IMG/VR virus record: IMGVR_UViG_3300045004_000088
Coordinates: 128,001 to 192,000 of that record
Source: a virus
Direction: 5' to 3' (one strand)
Length of the DNA stretch: 64,000 bases
A program made the position numbers and the translations under genes. This document shows, one piece after another, positions 6,894 to 15,010 of the stretch. How positions within the stretch are numbered: the first letter of the stretch is position 1; each line of letters opens with the position of its first letter. The notes beneath the pieces are model-generated. The model made no database searches. It was not told the origin of the DNA and was given only the letters and a program-made list of their open reading frames with translations.

Positions 6894-8108
6894 ATGAGTA
6901 GCCTGATCGTTCAAGTGTGCCGAGTCGATAAAGTCGAAGAACATCCCAACGCAGAAAAACTTGCCCTTGCAACAATCAAGGGCTGGAAAACCTGTATTCG
7001 TAAAGACGAAACCGGCACCCAGTTCAAAGAAGGCGATCTCTGCGTCTTCTTCCCGCCCGACGCCGTTCTCCCCAAAGAACTGTCGGATCGGCTCGGCGTC
7101 ACCAAGTACCTCAAGATGTTGGGCAAAGGCACGGACGGCAAGACCCCCGAAGGGGGCCGTGTGGCCGTTTCGCGTCTGCGCGGGCATCCGAGCTACGGGT
7201 TGATCTCCAAACTCGACATCCTGCCAGTCAAGATGAATCCCGACTTCTCAATGGCTTGGAAGCCGGGCGATGACGTGGCGTCCACTCTGGGCATTACCAA
7301 GTGGGAGCCGCCGATGACCTGTACGGACGGGGACGCAGAAAAGCCGCACCCGGCGTTCCACCGCTACTTCACACTCGAAAACTACCGCAACTTCCCCGAC
7401 TTGATTCCCAAAGGCAAGCGGGTCGTTTTCACCGAAAAGATCCACGGGAAGAACTGCCGCGTCGGACTGATCAAGGACACTGGCCCGGACGGTGAAATGG
7501 TCTGGACGTGGATGGCCGGTTCCCACGACGTTCGCCGCAAAGAGTTCGTCACCCGCAAGCGGAAGATCCACGACCGCGAAACGGGCGAAACAAAAACCGA
7601 AGAATACCAAGACAAGTCGCAGTTTTGGCAGGCTCTGGACCGGCCGGGCGTGCGCGACATGATCGACACCATCAGCGGCGGAAAGACGAGCGGTGGCTGC
7701 GTCGATAACGTCGTCGTCTTCGGCGAGATCTTCGGCAGCGGCGTTCAGGACATGGCCTACGGGATGGCGAACGGGAACTGGGACTTCCGCGTGTTCGACA
7801 TCACCGTCAACGGCAAGTACATGAGCTTCGCCGAGAAGATGAACTGGTGCCACATCCACGATGTCAAGATGGTGCCGATCCTGTACGAAGGCCCGTTCAG
7901 CGAGGAAGAGGTCGAGAAGTTCGTGGGCGGCAACACTACCGTCTGCTCATCGGAAGAGAACGGCAAGTTCAAGGGCCGCGAAGGGATCGTGATCACCAGC
8001 GAAATCGAAACTCAAGCCGTCACCCCGGAAAAGGTGTTCGACCGGATGGCACTCAAGGCCATCAACTTCGAGTACCTCGAACGCGCCGGCGGCACGGAAC
8101 ATCACTAA
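6894..8108 (+). CDS. RNA ligase (Rnl2-like nucleotidyltransferase) with N-terminal tRNA-binding OB-fold (Myf/Trbp111-like) domain
   Basis: N-term VEEHPNAEKLALATIKGW matches the tRNA-binding domain. KIHGKN matches Rnl2 motif I (KIHGTN); EGIV motif IV; LKAI motif V. Confidence 0.7.
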   Translation: MSSLIVQVCRVDKVEEHPNAEKLALATIKGWKTCIRKDETGTQFKEGDLCVFFPPDAVLPKELSDRLGVTKYLKMLGKGTDGKTPEGGRVAVSRLRGHPSYGLISKLDILPVKMNPDFSMAWKPGDDVASTLGITKWEPPMTCTDGDAEKPHPAFHRYFTLENYRNFPDLIPKGKRVVFTEKIHGKNCRVGLIKDTGPDGEMVWTWMAGSHDVRRKEFVTRKRKIHDRETGETKTEEYQDKSQFWQALDRPGVRDMIDTISGGKTSGGCVDNVVVFGEIFGSGVQDMAYGMANGNWDFRVFDITVNGKYMSFAEKMNWCHIHDVKMVPILYEGPFSEEEVEKFVGGNTTVCSSEENGKFKGREGIVITSEIETQAVTPEKVFDRMALKAINFEYLERAGGTEHH

Positions 8109-8542
8109 TGTCCCTCAACGATTGGATCGAGTTCGACACGCCACCCTACGTCGCCTATTGCCCTCGATGTGGCGATCCGGGTTTGATTCCAAGTCACCGC
8201 GACTACATGAACGGCACTCTCTGCGAGTCCACGGACGAGTGCCGTCGTTGTGGTTACTACTGCGAATTCTCTTACGGAAGCACGAACGAAGGCGACAATT
8301 CGACCGAGGAGAACGCGCGTATGATCGGCATGCACGACGAACACAACGCCGACGACCCCTTCAAGCTCGAACTGAGCATCACCGCGCTCGTTCAGGCCAC
8401 CCGCCGTATGAAATACGGCGAACACCGCTTCCTGTCGGAACTGGTACGTCAGCGGAAGAAAGATCCCCTCTACAAGTCTTCCACCGAGTTCAAAAACCAC
8501 ACCGACATGCTGGAAGAACTACTCGAAGCCGGATTTTTCTGA
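8108..8542 (+). CDS. Cys-rich zinc-ribbon-like hypothetical protein
   Basis: ATG overlaps the upstream stop (TAATG); CPRCG...CRRCGYYC motifs. Confidence 0.5.
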   Translation: MSLNDWIEFDTPPYVAYCPRCGDPGLIPSHRDYMNGTLCESTDECRRCGYYCEFSYGSTNEGDNSTEENARMIGMHDEHNADDPFKLELSITALVQATRRMKYGEHRFLSELVRQRKKDPLYKSSTEFKNHTDMLEELLEAGFF

Positions 8543-8604
8543 CGCAATTTCGGAGACATCGGCGGCGAGTGCTTTTACCCACTGTCTCGATTCCAAAGGA
8601 AAAC

Positions 8605-8931
8605 ATGAAAACCTACACTGTCGTCGTCGTTGACGAAACCAAACTCGGCATGGTGCAAGAAGAGATCGGCAACATGGCCGGCGTGGGCAACATCACCCAC
8701 GGCAACCTGAACATCCTGATCGTGGAGTCCAGCCAGCCGCTGAATCTGGCGGCGGTTCACGGCGTAGAACGCTATGATGAAATCGGCGCGACGGCCGACT
8801 TCGTTGAAGGTCTTCGCGTTCGCGGCGAGGTCGTGCCGGAAAGCGAGTTGAAAGATCACCCCGCAGACGGCGTCACCCACGTCGAAACCCCCGAAGGGGA
8901 AATCAAACGGGTCGCTTTCTCGGCGGTGTAA
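8605..8931 (+). CDS. hypothetical protein
   Basis: Met 162 of ORF 8122..8931 with AAGGAAA RBS. Confidence 0.5.
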   Translation: MKTYTVVVVDETKLGMVQEEIGNMAGVGNITHGNLNILIVESSQPLNLAAVHGVERYDEIGATADFVEGLRVRGEVVPESELKDHPADGVTHVETPEGEIKRVAFSAV

Positions 8932-9291
8932 ATGAAGCACGAAACGACAATCGAATACTGCGACGGCAACTTGAAGCACCTCGCCGTCGATATTGCCAAC
9001 CTGCAATACGACGCACTGCAAGACTTTTTGCTGTCGCTCGCGGAAAAACTTGAGAAAGACGCCGAGGCCGACCGAACCAGAAATCGGCCTATACTGTCCT
9101 CTCGATTGGAAGCGGCGGCGAGAAACATCGAAGACGCAGCCAGGGCGATTGCTCTGGCTTGGAAAATCTGCAAGCCTCATGTGGAGAACCAAGATGGAAA
9201 GCGATGCTCTGGGCGACCGGATGAAGATGTACGAGCGTGCGGGAACTGCGGAACGGTTCATGCCGCTTCTGCCAGTGATGGCACGAATTGA
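8932..9291 (+). CDS. hypothetical protein (uncertain; 3' end overlaps the Thg1-like gene)
   Basis: 119-aa ORF, ATG overlapping the upstream stop (TAAATG); the last ~100 nt overlap the 9194 start. Confidence 0.3.
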   Translation: MKHETTIEYCDGNLKHLAVDIANLQYDALQDFLLSLAEKLEKDAEADRTRNRPILSSRLEAAARNIEDAARAIALAWKICKPHVENQDGKRCSGRPDEDVRACGNCGTVHAASASDGTN

Positions 9292-10015
9292 CGGTCGCGC
9301 CTTCCACAGCTTCGTTCGCGGTCTGGAACGCCCCTACGATCAGCGCCTGAGTCAGATGATGATCGACACCACCAAGTACCTCGTCAAAGAGACTGCGGCG
9401 GTGATGGGCTACTGCCAGAGCGACGAGATCGGCCTGTGCTGGTACAGCGGCAACCCGGAAACCCAGATCTACTTCGACGGCCGCGTGGCGAAGATGATCA
9501 GTCAACTGGCCGCACAGACCAGCGTGTACTTCTACCGCCTGTGCGTGGACCGCCTGCCACCGGAGTACGCCGCGAAGATGCCGACCTTCGACTGTCGGTG
9601 CTGGACCGTGCCGAACTTCAACGAAGCCGCGAACACCTTCCTCTGGAGGGAGTTGGACGCGAGCAAGAACTCGATCTCGATGGCGGCGCGGAGCGTGTAC
9701 TCGCACAAGGCGTTGGAGAACAAGAACGGGTCGGAGATGCAGGAGATGCTCTGGCAGAAGGGCGTCAACTGGAACGACTACCCCCGGTTCTTCAAGCGGG
9801 GAACCTTCATCCAGCGGCAGATCGTGACCCGGAAGTTCACCACCGACGAACTCGACAAGTTGCCGCCGCAGCACGAGGCCCGGCACAACCCGGAACTGAC
9901 CTACGAGCGGTCGGACTACGTCGAACTGGACATGCCGCCCTTCAACAAGGTGGCGAACCGAGCGGCGGTCATCTTCGAGGGTGCCAAGCCGCAACTCTAC
10001 TCGTGTGCCGGGTGA
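9194..10015 (+). CDS. Thg1-like protein (tRNA-His guanylyltransferase family 3'-5' nucleotidyltransferase)
   Basis: GGAG RBS. VMARIDGRAFHSF matches the Thg1 VVVRLDGRNFHRF motif; GYCQSDE matches the GxSDE metal site. Confidence 0.7.
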   Translation: MESDALGDRMKMYERAGTAERFMPLLPVMARIDGRAFHSFVRGLERPYDQRLSQMMIDTTKYLVKETAAVMGYCQSDEIGLCWYSGNPETQIYFDGRVAKMISQLAAQTSVYFYRLCVDRLPPEYAAKMPTFDCRCWTVPNFNEAANTFLWRELDASKNSISMAARSVYSHKALENKNGSEMQEMLWQKGVNWNDYPRFFKRGTFIQRQIVTRKFTTDELDKLPPQHEARHNPELTYERSDYVELDMPPFNKVANRAAVIFEGAKPQLYSCAG

Positions 10016-10018
10016 ACC

Positions 10019-10219
10019 ATGAACCTCTGGTGTCGTCTGTTCCACCGCTGGAAGTACCACACCTACTTCGGCCCGACGTGTACGGAAACGACCGTCCACG
10101 CGGCTTGCGAAAAGTGCAAAAAGGTGTACGTCAGGATCTCTCGCGACTGTGCGCCGAGCGACGTGTTCTTCCAGAAAACCGGCATCGACTACAACTCGGT
10201 CGCAACCAAGTTCAACTAA
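10019..10219 (+). CDS. small Cys-containing hypothetical protein
   Basis: 66-aa ORF starting 4 nt after the Thg1-like stop. Confidence 0.4.
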   Translation: MNLWCRLFHRWKYHTYFGPTCTETTVHAACEKCKKVYVRISRDCAPSDVFFQKTGIDYNSVATKFN

Positions 10220-10258
10220 AGCAGCAAAGGCTACCAATTTGGTAGCCTTTGCTGCTTT
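10218..10258 (+). terminator. perfect hairpin terminator
   Basis: AAAGCAGCAAAGGCTACCAAA/TTTGGTAGCCTTTGCTGCTTT inverted repeat right after the stop at 10219. Confidence 0.6.
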
Positions 10259-10286
10259 AGTTGGTACAATCGAGTCGGAGGAACAC

Positions 10287-10403
10287 ATGCCGACCCCCCT
10301 CGAAATGATCGACGCGAAAGTCAAGAACTGCAAGCGTTGCGGTCTGTGCGACGGTCGCAAGAACACGGTTTTCGGCGAGGGCAATCCTTCCTTCTCTAAC
10401 TAA
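10287..10403 (+). pseudogene. N-terminal 38-aa fragment of a family-4 uracil-DNA glycosylase, truncated
   Basis: CKRCGLCDGRKNTVFGEGNPSF matches the UDG4 CxRCxLxxxRxxxVxGEGN motif. A stop follows; the rest of the domain is absent and a low-GC insert comes next. Confidence 0.5.
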
Positions 10404-10431
10404 CCATCTGTGCTGGTGATGGGTACAAAAA

Positions 10432-10482
10432 CACCGAGACGATATTGGATCACTCAAGTCCCGAACACCGTCTCGGTATTTA
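10432..10482 (-). terminator. hairpin with U-tract downstream of the minus gene ending 10524
   Basis: ACCGAGACG/CGTCTCGGT 9-bp stem with a large loop, followed by TTTTTG on the minus strand. Confidence 0.3.
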
Positions 10483-10523
10483 CTGTCTTCGGAGTTTATC
10501 TTTTACTTCCTGTAAGTCGCCGT

Positions 10524-11009
10524 TTATCTTTTCTTCATGCGTTTTGGACTGTTTGTAATACGAATGATCCTATCAACTTCTGATTCTTCTGGTTGAGACA
10601 TCCGACGCTCAACCTCTGCATCTGCTTGTTTTTGAAGTCGTGTATCTCGCTCATCATCTGTTTCCCAATTATCCATTTCTCCAGGCTTGATAAGCCCAAA
10701 GTGCTTATACGCTGGCCCAAATTTTTCCATTTCCTTTGGCGTACTGTTACGAATTAGTGGGTTGGGATGAGATTTATACTTCTCATAATGCTGCATGGCT
10801 TGTTGCATATATTGGTCATCTGGACTCAATTGTTGGGCTATAGGAGCCTGAACTGCCCCGCCAGCACCTAACATAGTTCCAGCAACAAGTGCTGGAGCAA
10901 GGGCTTTCTTTCCTAACCATCGCCCAGCACTACGCAATTGATGCCCACCCCAAATTTCATTATACATTTGCTGATCTCGTACAGCAAGCCATTCGTGAAA
11001 TGTATTCAT
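10524..11009 (-). CDS. hypothetical protein in a lower-GC inserted block
   Basis: Met 168 of ORF 10524..11510; starts 4 nt after the stop of 11014..11955; local composition is AT-richer. Confidence 0.45.
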   Translation of the reverse strand: MNTFHEWLAVRDQQMYNEIWGGHQLRSAGRWLGKKALAPALVAGTMLGAGGAVQAPIAQQLSPDDQYMQQAMQHYEKYKSHPNPLIRNSTPKEMEKFGPAYKHFGLIKPGEMDNWETDDERDTRLQKQADAEVERRMSQPEESEVDRIIRITNSPKRMKKR

Positions 11010-11013
11010 ACAG

Positions 11014-11955
11014 CTATTTAGTAGATGGACTTGATTTTTGCAAAAACTGACCTCTCTCATCACGCTCCATAACCCTCTTCTTCTGACTTTCAGAGAGTTT
11101 CTTACGGCTCTCGTCACTCCACACCTTGCCCAAATGGGCCGTGCGGCGTCCGTTGTGCTTCTCGGCAAGAGCCTGACACTCATCAACCTCAAGCACCTGG
11201 GTCGGGATGAATGGATTGACCGAGTTGATCTCGGCACGGCACAGTTTACAGCCGTTGTCGTTTCGGCTGGTGTCGAAGTACAGGACGATCTCCTTGAGAT
11301 GTGGCCGCAGCAGTACCGCCTTGTTCTCACCTTCTGCTTGCACCACGTCGCCACAAAGGGTCTGGATAGTTGTTGCCGCTTCCAGAAGATGTTGCTTGGA
11401 CTGCCGGTACTCAGAAACCAGGGAATGCAGACCAACCTCCAGTTGTTCGATCTCCACCTGTTTGTCCTTGATAAACTGTTTGATGTCAGGATCGTCGCCC
11501 ATGTCAGCAAACTTCAAGATCAACTTCTGCTTCTCGGCTTTCAAAGAAACGACCTTACCACGCACAGACTGGTGAACTTCATCAAAGATTTCTTGGTACG
11601 TCAATTCCAAATAGTCGGCGTCATTGTCTGGAGTCGCCATGTACTTCCACGCACGCTTCTTGAAGTTCTTGGCCTTCTCATCCTCCGTATCGCCAGGGAG
11701 GTTAGCGAAGATGAACTTATACATCTTCTGAGCGACTTCACCGCAAGCGGCGATGGCATTGTCTGTCCGCTTGTTTGTTGGGTCCAGCATCTCTCCGATC
11801 AGTTCGTTGACGATGCCGTTGGAGGACTTGACCTTTTCACAGAGCGTAAGGTAGCTCTTTTCGAGCCAACGCAGCCAGTTGTCAATGATTTCGTGGATCA
11901 CGTCGATCTTGACTGCCCCACACTTCTCACAGCGATAGTTTTTCGACGGCTTCAT
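11014..11955 (-). CDS. NUMOD3-motif protein, putative homing-endonuclease-like or DNA-binding
   Basis: 313-aa ORF; C-term GRRTAHLGKVWSDESRKKLSESQKKR resembles NUMOD3; N-term CEKCG; lies inside the UDG-disrupting insert. Confidence 0.5.
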   Translation of the reverse strand: MKPSKNYRCEKCGAVKIDVIHEIIDNWLRWLEKSYLTLCEKVKSSNGIVNELIGEMLDPTNKRTDNAIAACGEVAQKMYKFIFANLPGDTEDEKAKNFKKRAWKYMATPDNDADYLELTYQEIFDEVHQSVRGKVVSLKAEKQKLILKFADMGDDPDIKQFIKDKQVEIEQLEVGLHSLVSEYRQSKQHLLEAATTIQTLCGDVVQAEGENKAVLLRPHLKEIVLYFDTSRNDNGCKLCRAEINSVNPFIPTQVLEVDECQALAEKHNGRRTAHLGKVWSDESRKKLSESQKKRVMERDERGQFLQKSSPSTK

Positions 11956-12043
11956 CCCATCGACGGCAGCGCGTTCGACTGCGACATCCTCGACATGATC
12001 GCCGCGTTGAAGAAGAAATACGCCGACAAGCCATAATTACAGC

Positions 12044-12409
12044 ATGTTCAAAAAATGGCTCGTCTTACGCGAAAACGATGAATCAGCCTTCATTCAGGCC
12101 ATCAAAGCGAACCCGACAGACCGCACGCTCTGGCTGGTCTACGCCGACTGGCTAGATGAACACGACCGCCCCGAAGAGGCGGCGGCAATCCGCAAGGCTA
12201 AAGCCGCCCCTCCTCCGAAAAGCCGACAAGTCAACAGCATGGGCGAACGCGAGTACCAGAGCTTCGGTACTTGGCGGAAAGCGATCATGACCGAGTTCCC
12301 CGGAGCCACATTTGACGGCAACAAGGACATTGCACAAGCATTGTTCTACGGTACGGGTGTCGGCGAATGGGACGGGGAACGCGGGGTCATCTACGCCAGG
12401 AACAGTTAA
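12044..12409 (+). CDS. TIGR02996-like (repeat-companion domain) protein
   Basis: ANPTDRTLWLVYADWLDEHDRPEEAAAIR matches a motif that is expanded in Planctomycetes and Myxococcota. Confidence 0.55.
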   Translation: MFKKWLVLRENDESAFIQAIKANPTDRTLWLVYADWLDEHDRPEEAAAIRKAKAAPPPKSRQVNSMGEREYQSFGTWRKAIMTEFPGATFDGNKDIAQALFYGTGVGEWDGERGVIYARNS

Positions 12410-12864
12410 GACTTGCCTTTGCCGTAGTGTCTAGCAATGGCGCGAGCTACGTCCGGCCAGATCCTGCGAACACCGGGGTGCAGGTTCTTTGACGTGATGT
12501 GTGACAGCGGCACCCATTCGTAATCGCTGCTCTCGTCACTCAACTTGACGTTGTACGGCTTCTCAATGGTCATCAGATACGTCTTGAAGACGTGGTGGCC
12601 GTCCTGATCGGTGAAGTCATCGATCCGCGTCATCGACGGCAGATTGCCACTCTCTTCTTTGGCCTCACGGTGGGCCGCGCCGATGTCCGATTCGCCCGAC
12701 TTCACTTTGCCGCCAGGAATGGCCCAGGTGTTGGGTTGGTCGCACGGCGGCTTCCGCTTCAGCAAAAGAACCACATCACCGTCCGTCATGAACAGACCGG
12801 CTCCACGTTTGCCGTACCGCTTCTTGCCGCCGGCACCGATTCGCGAAAACCCGGATTTACTCAC
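12406..12864 (-). CDS. Nudix hydrolase
   Basis: Nudix box GGKVKSGESDIGAAHREAKEESG (GX5EX7REUXEEXGU). Confidence 0.7.
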   Translation of the reverse strand: MSKSGFSRIGAGGKKRYGKRGAGLFMTDGDVVLLLKRKPPCDQPNTWAIPGGKVKSGESDIGAAHREAKEESGNLPSMTRIDDFTDQDGHHVFKTYLMTIEKPYNVKLSDESSDYEWVPLSHITSKNLHPGVRRIWPDVARAIARHYGKGKS

Positions 12865-13437: not shown

Positions 13438-14073
13438 TCACCCCATGATGATGCCGTGGGCCTTCAACCACTCGGCGAATGCCACTTTGTCGTATTTACT
13501 CCTCTTGGAAGTATTCTGCCTGCCGGATAGTGGCTGAAGATTTTCCAGGCAGTTAATCAGCTTCGGGTCAGTGATGCCATTCTCGATAAAGGCATTGATC
13601 GGGAAAATGTGATCGAGGTGCCAAGAGCCGCCACAAACTTTGGCATAGTTCGGATGCGACAAGACGTAAGTCTGAAGTTCCTTTGGGGTGTATCCCAAAA
13701 TCTCGTGAGTACGGCGAGCCTTTGTAGTCTTTCCGGCTTTCAAACTCGATGACAAAGCTTTGTAAATCTTCTTGCGGAAGAGTTCATTCTCTCTGGCCTT
13801 CTGGCGGTCGGCGATCCACTGATAGTTGTTGGCTCCACTGACCTTCTTTATCCATTCTCGATTGTTTGACCGCTTCTCTTGAATCTTCTTCAAGCCGCAC
13901 TCATAACAGTTCTGTTTTTGATGAACGAAAGCGCCAAGTGTGACAGCAGACATGTTGCCACACTTGCAACGATAAGCCACTGGCGTAACACTGTTCTTGT
14001 AAACAGTGTCAAGCAATTCGCATCCGCGATCAGCAAACATCTGGCGCACTTGTTCTATGGTGAATTTTCTCAT
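13438..14073 (-). CDS. HNH homing endonuclease
   Basis: WHLDHIFPI...NLQPL...N HNH motif; lower-GC island; Met 23 of ORF 13438..14139 (longer alt start at 14139). Confidence 0.65.
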   Translation of the reverse strand: MRKFTIEQVRQMFADRGCELLDTVYKNSVTPVAYRCKCGNMSAVTLGAFVHQKQNCYECGLKKIQEKRSNNREWIKKVSGANNYQWIADRQKARENELFRKKIYKALSSSLKAGKTTKARRTHEILGYTPKELQTYVLSHPNYAKVCGGSWHLDHIFPINAFIENGITDPKLINCLENLQPLSGRQNTSKRSKYDKVAFAEWLKAHGIIMG

Positions 14074-14107
14074 GCCATATTGTAGTGCATTATAATTGGA
14101 AAATGTC

Positions 14108-15010
14108 TTATCCCATGACGATGGGCAACTGCCCATCACCGAATCTGGTGATCAGTCTCTCTTCCCATTCCTTCTTTTCCTCGCGGCCCTCTTGCAACAG
14201 AGTGTCGCCGTCGAGTTGTACGCCGCCGTTCGGCCCAGGCGGGTTTTTGATCTTGCTCCTGATTCGGCCGAGCATGATCTTGGCGAAACACAACGCCCCT
14301 TCTTTCATGGCGTGAGCCACACGGCCCCAGTCCTTGTGCTTCTGAATGTAGTGGACGGCCACCTTGTGTACCCGGTACGGGATCGGGTAGATCTTGATGT
14401 GTTGGAAGTCGCCCAACCACTCCCACCCGCCCAGGTTAGAAGCGATTCGGGAGTACATTTGTTCGTACTGCTTGTACAGAACCCACTCGCCCATCCTGCC
14501 CCAGATCGGCTGGATCGGGTCGATCATGCCGCCCTGAATGCTGGCATAGGCACCGCCCGGATAGAAATACTCGACCGGCAGCGAACCGCCCAGGTCGGAC
14601 GCGGCGAACGCGAACGAGCCAGTTTCCTTGTACCGCACCTCTCGGATGTAACCGATTTCCGGCGGAAGTTTGTAAACGCTTTGGCCCGGCGTTGTGTTAA
14701 ATACGAACCACTCGAAGTATTCGCGTGGGGCGTACTCCTCGAATACTGCGAGTGCTTCGTCCACCGCGATGTCGAGTTGTTGATCGTTGAGTTCGATCAC
14801 GACTTCCGGCGCACCTAACATGGCGAGAACGTAGTCTTTGATCTGGTCTATTACCTTTGATCGGTCGCGTCTCGGACCCAGTTGTTTGATGTCCAACGGA
14901 TCGGCTACACCGAGGCCGTTGCCGCCGCCACAGCCACTTGCACAAACACCGCCGCCCTGCGTGTAAGAAGGGCGGGGCAAGACGATTTGATTGCTACCAC
15001 AATTTCCCAT
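14108..15010 (-). CDS. hypothetical protein (MGNCGS, Gly/Cys-rich N-terminus); possible virion component
   Basis: 300-aa ORF at the head of a minus-strand cluster; function not recognisable. Confidence 0.55.
   Translation of the reverse strand: MGNCGSNQIVLPRPSYTQGGGVCASGCGGGNGLGVADPLDIKQLGPRRDRSKVIDQIKDYVLAMLGAPEVVIELNDQQLDIAVDEALAVFEEYAPREYFEWFVFNTTPGQSVYKLPPEIGYIREVRYKETGSFAFAASDLGGSLPVEYFYPGGAYASIQGGMIDPIQPIWGRMGEWVLYKQYEQMYSRIASNLGGWEWLGDFQHIKIYPIPYRVHKVAVHYIQKHKDWGRVAHAMKEGALCFAKIMLGRIRSKIKNPPGPNGGVQLDGDTLLQEGREEKKEWEERLITRFGDGQLPIVMG

Follow-up and report, generated by a model that had tools for sequence, protein, structure and literature searches.

What removed all but the beginning of a uracil-DNA glycosylase (UDG) gene from a viral genome, and what stands in its place? 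The question is raised by 64,000 nucleotides of virus record IMGVR_UViG_3300045004_000088 (positions 128,001 to 192,000 of that record), hereafter called the window and numbered from its first letter. At position 10287 a family-4 UDG gene begins and breaks off after a few dozen codons, and about 1.55 kb of inserted DNA with two open reading frames (ORFs) on the minus strand follows. An earlier note, made from the letters alone, had read the locus as a UDG gene decapitated by a low-GC insertion that carries a protein with a NUMOD3 motif. The reading preferred here, with a probability of roughly 0.8 on the sequence evidence, is that a site-specific large serine recombinase (LSR) element entered the UDG gene and that a later deletion removed one end of the element together with the rest of the gene.

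The truncated gene occupies 10287..10403 on the plus strand. Its ORF begins with the ATG at 10287, reads MPTPLEMIDAKVKNCKRCGLCDGRKNTVFGEGNPSFSN and ends with a TAA stop codon at 10401-10403; the gene's own GGAGG ribosome-binding site is retained ahead of the ATG. The CxxC and GEGNP segment typical of the N-terminus of family-4 UDGs is present. Residues 5-35 align with the N-terminus (CxxC...VFGEGNP) of the family-4 UDG of Thermus thermophilus (1ui0, E 6.7e-6), of whose approximately 200 residues about 35 are thus represented. No Pfam match, UDG (PF03167) included, was obtained for the 38-amino-acid (aa) ORF. In a comparison with related phages, designated by locus numbers (L001 and so on) in what follows, the same residues matched residues 30-61 of the intact 221-aa UDG of L002 (66% identity, E 2.5e-9). 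The homology to UDG ends at GEGNP, and the final codons, (S)FSN before the stop, derive from the inserted DNA. Of the 38 codons that the earlier note had assigned to UDG, 35 therefore belong to it and three to the element; the truncated family-4 gene itself is real.

No further UDG segment was found in the whole 64 kb by tblastn with three phage UDGs, and the catalytic-core motifs GE(A/G)PG and HPS were absent from the window in the same search. The absence of the rest of the domain, as previously claimed, is thereby borne out, and UDG is not encoded at this locus or elsewhere in the window. The earlier note had also considered that the peptide might be a conserved stand-alone protein. In relatives, short N-terminal ORFs of this kind occur only as displaced fragments beside the same element, and the truncation stands because in L002 and L005, which do not carry the element, the peptide is the start of a full-length UDG. 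The same arrangement was assembled independently in seven JGI contigs (the longest of 475,914 bp) and in one Logan contig in five samples, and is therefore not an assembly artefact. The length of the longest contig also identifies the source genome as that of a huge phage.

The inserted DNA (10404-11955) has a GC content of 0.481 against a window mean of 0.561, which places it in the lowest 0.16% of windows of equal size. The low-GC insertion is in this respect as first described, and so are the two minus-strand ORFs, at 10524-11012 (162 aa) and 11014-11955 (313 aa). The larger of these is, by homology, a truncated LSR and not a homing endonuclease. A DNA search of the window in distant mode gave a match to one huge-phage genome, LR756511.1 (L001). 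The homologue encoded there is a 684/698-aa protein whose residues 408-689 are 62% identical to the 313-aa ORF (E 7e-110). Identities are 78% to the protein of L056 (E 1e-175), 80% to that of L058, and 61-64% to the copies described below as type A. A HMMER search over 1.84 billion representative proteins gave 19 relatives, mostly of 650-800 aa, which match via their C-terminal 300 residues or so. A word-index protein search with the 313-aa and 162-aa ORFs returned only the window's own proteins, and a sequence search of the PDB with the full-length recombinase gave nothing useful.

The identification as an LSR rests on several features of the full-length relatives. The L001 protein matches the Pfam family Recombinase (PF07508, E 3.3e-9), which is absent from the window ORF and is also recorded for P0021, P0022, P0024, P0004 and P0008. 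Over residues 256-675 it matches the integrases of phrog_95 (E 3e-28), to the C-terminal part of which a long region of the window ORF aligns through its relatives. The family Resolvase (PF00239) is matched end to end over the first 154 residues of the full-length relatives, at an E-value of 0.0018 and 18.8 bits against a cut-off of 23.3. The motifs RRKS and YRDxDRIG are conserved in their N-terminal region. Intact copies presumably encode catalytically active recombinases.

The truncated gene (11014..11955, minus strand) comprises 313 codons, corresponding approximately to residues 395-684 of the full-length relatives. It contains the second zinc-ribbon CxxC, a putative coiled-coil region and a NUMOD3-like tail. 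The first 394 residues or so, which hold the catalytic and recombinase domains, are missing, and the promoter is gone as well; the N-terminal part, with the catalytic resolvase domain and its serine nucleophile, was found nowhere in the window. In the family alignment the window ORF starts exactly at KPSKNYRCEKCG, past the first Cys pair of the zinc ribbon (CGNC in L001), which is deleted, and ahead of the second (CEKC), which is kept along with a later CKLC pair. At the DNA level, homology with the closest full-length genes ends at 11953, and protein homology breaks off equally abruptly (11953-11955).

The NUMOD3-like C-terminus reported earlier exists as a weak tail match (PF07460, E 0.017) that, at 15.5 bits, lies below the cut-off of 20.4 and disappears when the whole protein is scanned; the tail of the L001 recombinase gives E 0.011 to the same family. 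The motif is a short basic helix, G..WSDESRKKLSE, which is conserved across the recombinase family and duplicated in tandem in P0005. No nuclease domain (GIY-YIG, HNH or LAGLIDADG) was found in the 313-aa or the 162-aa ORF with Pfam and PHROG. To see a homing-endonuclease-type gene in this ORF is accordingly mistaken, as it forms the C-terminal half of an LSR of about 700 aa.

How the element came to lie in UDG can be read from the junctions. All occupied UDG genes break at the codons for Gly-Asn-Pro (GNP), after which a related element arm of the TTCTCTAAYTAAC type begins. The break point is common to six of them (the window, L058, L001, L044, L059 and L060), and one side of it is seen in L056. 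Junction comparison places the shared attachment (att) core GGCAATCC at 10380..10387 of the window (plus strand). The element-side arm, or P' arm, TTCCTTCTCTAACTAACC (10388..10405, plus strand) comes next and gives the truncated UDG ORF its stop codon. Where the window reads GGCAATCC TTCCTTCTCTAACTAACC, L001 reads GGCAATCC TAATTTCTCTAATTAACC; the same arm follows the core in L044, L058 and L060, and a diverged form of it in L059. Displaced UDG 5' fragments like that of the window are present in L001, L044, L058, L059 and L060. The one in L001, a second UDG 5' fragment located between the gene for the Thg1-like tRNA-His guanylyltransferase and the recombinase gene, reads MKLELLDTLKQKICNCTQCPELVDYRTQTVFDSGNPNFSN before its stop codon. 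On the far side of each element a related arm of the GACTGTCAGTTAG type adjoins the same core, and the body of the UDG gene follows. The unoccupied UDG genes of L002 and L005 run uninterrupted through GGCAACCC and GGAAACCC, the empty site (attB) of L002 being ACTGTCTTCGGTGAAGGCAACCCCAACGCCGATGTT.

In L044 the left and right junctions are attL = GGCAATCCT and attR = GGAAATCCC, which differ just left and just right of AATCC. Because they differ on both sides, the exchange is bracketed to AATCC (10383-10387 in the window); we infer that the crossover, with its exact dinucleotide, lies within it. Serine-integrase att sites are expected to consist of imperfect inverted-repeat arms around a central dinucleotide. 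As judged directly from the sequences, the arms found here form imperfect inverted repeats around the AA of GGC-AA-TCC, with about 10-12 of 15 dyad matches, and the reconstructed attP has its dyad centre at the AA of the core. Both this dyad symmetry and the hybrid nature of attL and attR were found when the six occupied sites were set against the two empty ones; the window keeps attL alone. The motif TTCTCTAAYTA occurs only at these junctions among the 57 loci gathered, and once in the window. A second copy of the core GGCAATCC is located at 12184-12191, inside a 121-aa ORF, and its left flank is similar to that of the first (GGCGGCGGCAATCC, 12178-12191, compared with GGCGAGGGCAATCC, 10374-10387). 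It was considered as a cryptic att site and rejected as a chance occurrence, since its right flank resembles no arm.

The intact elements, 2.4-5.0 kb long overall, have two layouts. Type A, with 4.26-4.98 kb from core to core, is the layout of L001, L044/L055/L057, L059 and L060 (L001 3234-8172, L044 6623-10891, L059 4297-8986 and L060 2813-7810). The order along the UDG strand is P' arm and terminator, recombinase gene, Dam (D12-class) methyltransferase gene, gene for a MutH-like or PDDEXK-type nuclease, a conserved ORF of about 81 aa, and a spare UDG 5' end. The spare end has its own CxxC motif and is fused in frame at GNP, so that a full-length UDG is re-formed; the rebuilt UDG of L001 matches the Pfam UDG family with E 3e-38. 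The type-A cargo resembles a restriction-modification or methyl-directed nuclease cassette that the element would bring into huge phages. In L044 (10740-11352) the rebuilt UDG is split into two overlapping frames (10740..11045 and 10951..11352), by a frameshift or an assembly error.

Type B is represented by L058 (2.43 kb) and L056 (one side only). It carries the recombinase gene alone, transcribed away from the UDG body, and a terminator hairpin adjoins the P' arm. In both loci the recombinase gene diverges from a UDG body that starts at GNP; in L058 this body has a short Cys-less leader (MRKLGNPEAKLVFMGEAPG...) and encodes 159 aa. In family-4 UDGs the cysteines of the N-terminal CxxC bind the 4Fe-4S cluster, and because the leader has none, type B is predicted to inactivate UDG, probably until excision. 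L056 and L058 have as their right arm (GACTGTCAGTT...) the P arm of type A, oriented as it is there, and the conserved recombinase promoter ACTCTATATAAT (L001, L044, L056) moves together with its gene. What separates the two types is therefore an inverted recombinase module and the loss of the cargo. Integration in reverse orientation was considered as the origin of type B and rejected, as the P arm keeps its type-A orientation and only the recombinase module is inverted.

On these comparisons the window element is a type-B copy in the usual orientation, to which the 162-aa ORF has been added and from which one end has been deleted. The assignment to type B is based on the P' arm and the terminator hairpin, both shared with L058, and on the recombinase, which is closest to those of L056 and L058; an insertion in the recombinase, SNGIVNELIGEMLDP.NKRTDN.IAA, is common to the window and L056. 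The hairpin (minus strand, 10422..10485; the segment compared with L058 spans 10429-10496) is an intrinsic terminator with a U-run at the end of the minus-strand recombinase operon. It folds with -30 kcal/mol (z -4.6), was also found as an inverted repeat, and corresponds by homology to the L058 hairpin that lies immediately behind the stop codon of the recombinase (AAACACCGAGACGG...CCGAACACCGTCTCGGTGTTTATTGTCTTCGGA). Hairpins were scored by folding; a simple terminator scan missed them owing to its loop-length limits.

The 162-aa ORF (10524..11012, minus strand) lies between the recombinase stop codon (11014) and this hairpin and is the lowest-GC piece of the window (GC 0.434, lowest 0.08%). 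It is absent from L056 and L058 and is thus extra with respect to the intact type-B elements. The encoded protein has a conserved N-terminal motif, FHEWL..EIWGG..LRSAGRWLGKK, and a hydrophobic stretch rich in Gly and Ala. Its sole relative, 33% identical, is found in the unrelated viral contig L046; neither Pfam nor PHROG gave a match, and no function was assigned. The stop codon of this ORF is bracketed by a 16-nucleotide direct repeat (TCGGAGTTTATCTTTT / TCGCCGTTTATCTTTT, 28 nucleotides apart, 10489-10532). The repeat is located where the window leaves the L058 sequence and may be a trace of the acquisition of the extra ORF.

Outward of recombinase codon 394 or thereabouts, the promoter, the P arm and the UDG body are all absent. 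The deletion scar lies at 11955/11956 and is followed by 88 bp of backbone-like GC content (0.557; 11956..12043) that read PIDGSAFDCDILDMIAALKKKYADKP and a stop codon on the plus strand and have no Pfam match. The 26-codon tail at 11956-12036 was compared with four phage UDG C-termini by local alignment and shuffling, with p values of about 0.1 for the best pair and 0.3 for the sum. It aligns about as well with the C-terminus of a MazG-like protein in L031 (E 0.16), which is not syntenic. Since the tail is not significantly UDG-like, a single deletion is the most economical reading of the scar and not a demonstrated one. To the right of the 88 bp there is the 121-aa ORF, and then a block of NUDIX, p191 and gp13-like genes that is syntenic with L002; synteny with the L002 backbone resumes about 450 bp past the remnant. 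The 121-aa ORF (12044-12409, plus strand) shows an LVYADWLDEHD-type motif and a match to phrog_18306 (E 1.9e-11). In none of the related loci does such an ORF lie between UDG and NUDIX, and it may be a newcomer at this spot too.

The order of events that we infer is as follows. An LSR element would have inserted site-specifically at the GNP codons of UDG, within the core GGCAATCC and with the exchange inside AATCC. UDG would thereby have been split into a 5' fragment, which kept its promoter and ribosome-binding site and was supplied with a stop codon by the arm, and a body on the far side. The ancestral type-B order along the UDG strand would have been P' arm, terminator hairpin, recombinase gene on the opposite strand, promoter, P arm and UDG body. 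The arrival of the 162-aa ORF between the recombinase stop codon and the hairpin would have been the first change. The second would have been a deletion of recombinase codons 1 to approximately 394, the promoter and the P arm, which also took the UDG body, entirely or almost entirely. The body is assigned to this second event because relatives with intact elements keep it on the other side. What was previously described as one decapitating insertion is thus only partly so: inserted DNA did truncate UDG, by way of a site-specific att element, and the body was probably lost in a separate deletion. The outcome would be a fixed fossil, able neither to recombine nor to make UDG. Because the catalytic domain, the second att site and the conserved promoter are all missing, the remnant is, as far as its content tells, unable to move.

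The distribution of the element among the phages is patchy. The closest backbone relative of the window, L002, has an empty, intact UDG, with identities of 73% for Thg1, 72% for NUDIX, 76% for p191 and 90% for the gp13-like protein; in L002 and L005 the same neighbourhood contains an uninterrupted UDG gene and no recombinase. The backbone genes of L058 are 46-58% identical to those of the window and its recombinase 80%. Together with the lack of the element in L002, the closest relative by backbone, this excess suggests that the element has passed horizontally from one huge-phage lineage to another and then decayed in that of the window. With the patterns used, the species genomes of bacteria and archaea yielded no relative. 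More distant members of the recombinase family occur in soil contigs of bacterial appearance (L050 and L051). The L050 copy (782-1758 of Ga0185143_132659) has suffered an internal deletion: an N-terminal piece, AFSYVRFSSSEQ, stands in one frame and is followed by a 288-aa ORF, the start of which nearly coincides with that of the window fragment. A search of IMG/VR with the recombinase alignment found the L044 phage only, and scanning viral contigs with the L002 UDG as a single query protein brought up nothing but that UDG itself.

Several observations weigh against an LSR element that was later cut by a deletion. The catalytic Resolvase match of the full-length relatives stays below the Pfam cut-off. 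The recombinase has opposite orientations in types A and B relative to the same arms, which requires an internal inversion. The right-hand scar is not tied to UDG, and for this phage neither an empty site nor a circle or attP was seen as a product of recombination. The 313-codon frame, moreover, contains no stops or frameshifts, and its ratio of nonsynonymous to synonymous substitutions (dN/dS) is 0.065-0.078 against intact copies and 0.056 between two intact copies, with dS saturated. The truncation may be recent; otherwise the fragment is still selected, and this second option would be unlike a pure fossil. A domesticated fragment might, for example, bind att sites or recombinase subunits, keep related elements from invading again or disturb their recombinase, and would form a small operon with the 162-aa ORF. 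This is unlikely, even though the intact frame, a dN/dS no higher than between intact copies and the retained terminator hairpin would suit it, and in the independent L050 copy, too, the middle is gone while the corresponding C-terminal portion survives as an ORF. The recombinase promoter ACTCTATATAAT has been deleted, and the ATG at 11955 has no good ribosome-binding site ahead of it; the first zinc-ribbon CxxC and the whole DNA-binding recombinase domain are missing; the fragment is found in one phage population only; and, as dS is saturated, the dN/dS values mostly reflect the time before truncation. That the UDG body was not deleted and was displaced to a place outside the window, by a very large element or an inversion, is quite improbable. 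The 64 kb searched are part of a genome of about 476 kb, which leaves room for it, but the NUDIX, p191 and gp13-like block of L002 returns so soon after the remnant, the known intact elements are so short, and a simple large insertion would not explain why the recombinase itself is truncated at 11955.

The invasion and decapitation of UDG by a homing-endonuclease-type gene with a NUMOD3 motif, the reading to which the weak PF07460 matches of the window and L001 tails and the low GC content of the segment had lent some colour, is very improbable now that the ORF has been placed among serine-recombinase-type proteins with the same tail and without any detected GIY-YIG, HNH or LAGLIDADG domain. 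The att-site anatomy common to six phage lineages is likewise unlike a homing site with co-conversion of the flanking exons. LSRs are common as phage integrases, and phrog_95 is annotated as integrase; the recombinase might then be the phage's own, and the split UDG a prophage-host junction or the attP of the phage. This can hardly be the case, as phage backbone genes syntenic with relatives flank the remnant on both sides (Thg1 and the RNA-ligase-like gene on the left, the NUDIX block on the right). Both halves of UDG are found in the same phage contigs, 2.4-5.0 kb apart, in L001, L044, L058, L059 and L060, and L002 and L005 have the neighbourhood with UDG whole and no recombinase. A group I or group II intron or an intein was rejected, in agreement with the earlier note: a Rfam scan of 9900-12600 found no intron, its sole matches being chance microRNA matches on a palindrome upstream of UDG, the inserted ORFs run opposite to UDG, and the part of UDG that would follow downstream is missing. 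Site-specific insertion of an LSR element, followed by deletion, remains the preferred explanation of the locus.

Upstream of the remnant the order is Thg1-like gene (9200-10012, Pfam Thg1 E 1e-26), a 66-aa ORF, the palindrome and the UDG stump. The palindrome (10213-10263) directly follows the 66-aa ORF and is perfect, with 25/25 nucleotides and a spacer of one nucleotide; its folding energy is -37.9 kcal/mol (z -9.3), it accounts for the spurious microRNA matches in Rfam, and it is probably a bidirectional terminator. The neighbourhood of RNA-ligase-like gene (PF09414), Thg1-like tRNA-His guanylyltransferase, UDG and NUDIX (6894-10012 in the window) is conserved in many huge-phage contigs; 42 loci were found via Thg1, among them L009 with two tandem Thg1 copies. 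Further downstream the GC content drops again (0.46-0.48) between the genes for p191 and the gp13-like protein, and this patch contains a 233-aa ORF (13438-14139, minus strand). An HNH-like motif (HLDHIFP...NLQPL...N) and Cys pairs were recognized in it by eye, no Pfam match was obtained, and a match in L058 has 42% identity over 120 aa. It could be a homing-endonuclease-type insertion.

The odd UDG stump is thus explained by events of a known kind, site-specific integration and subsequent deletion, of which it is the scar. The scar exposes a small family of serine-recombinase elements in huge phages, located always at the same 8-bp UDG core. The family is a clear case of phage parasites that are themselves mobile and pass from one phage to another. 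From several lineages there are naturally occurring attL and attR sequences and empty attB sites; with the recombinases they form a testable set from a divergent LSR family, which could serve genome engineering. The phages themselves constitute a natural experiment that asks if a huge phage can dispense with UDG, switch it or profit from its restoration. Full-text searches of the literature found no description of UDG-targeting LSR elements, which is weak evidence of novelty. A broader picture is unlikely as a whole: an undescribed miniature LSR element family would parasitise huge phages at the UDG GNP codons and spread horizontally, type B would silence UDG reversibly, type A would rebuild it while delivering Dam methylase and nuclease, and the window fragment with the 162-aa ORF would have been retained against re-invasion or to interfere with related elements.

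Among known systems, the NUMOD3 homing endonucleases with I-TevI-type modules share with the window protein the basic helix motif of its tail, which here occurs without a nuclease domain. Closer parallels are LSR elements that reportedly interrupt genes, such as the skin element (SpoIVCA, in sigK) and SPbeta (SprA, in spsM) of Bacillus and the Listeria phage A118 in comK. As in these, an LSR element lies inside a protein-coding gene at a short specific site, leaving a 5' stump and a 3' body, and precise excision of the intact type-B copies (L058, L056) would be expected, by analogy, to rebuild UDG. The UDG elements differ in that their target is a gene of a huge phage and not of a bacterial chromosome, in their size of 2.4-5 kb, which is not that of a prophage, and in their recombinases, a small divergent family with 19 representatives in 1.84 billion proteins; the window copy, moreover, is broken and no longer able to excise. 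A second parallel is provided by phage 21 and e14 in icd and by many tRNA-gene elements, which are said to restore their target with a spare gene end, using tyrosine integrases and replacing the 3' end. The type-A copies (L001, L044, L059, L060) similarly bring a UDG 5' end and displace the original one. They use a serine recombinase, however, and it is the 5' end, with a new promoter, that is replaced; the type-B lineage of the window has lost the spare UDG end. What sets the UDG elements apart from these systems is the combination of a huge phage as host replicon, small size, a fixed UDG target, replacement of the 5' end and a divergent family of recombinases.

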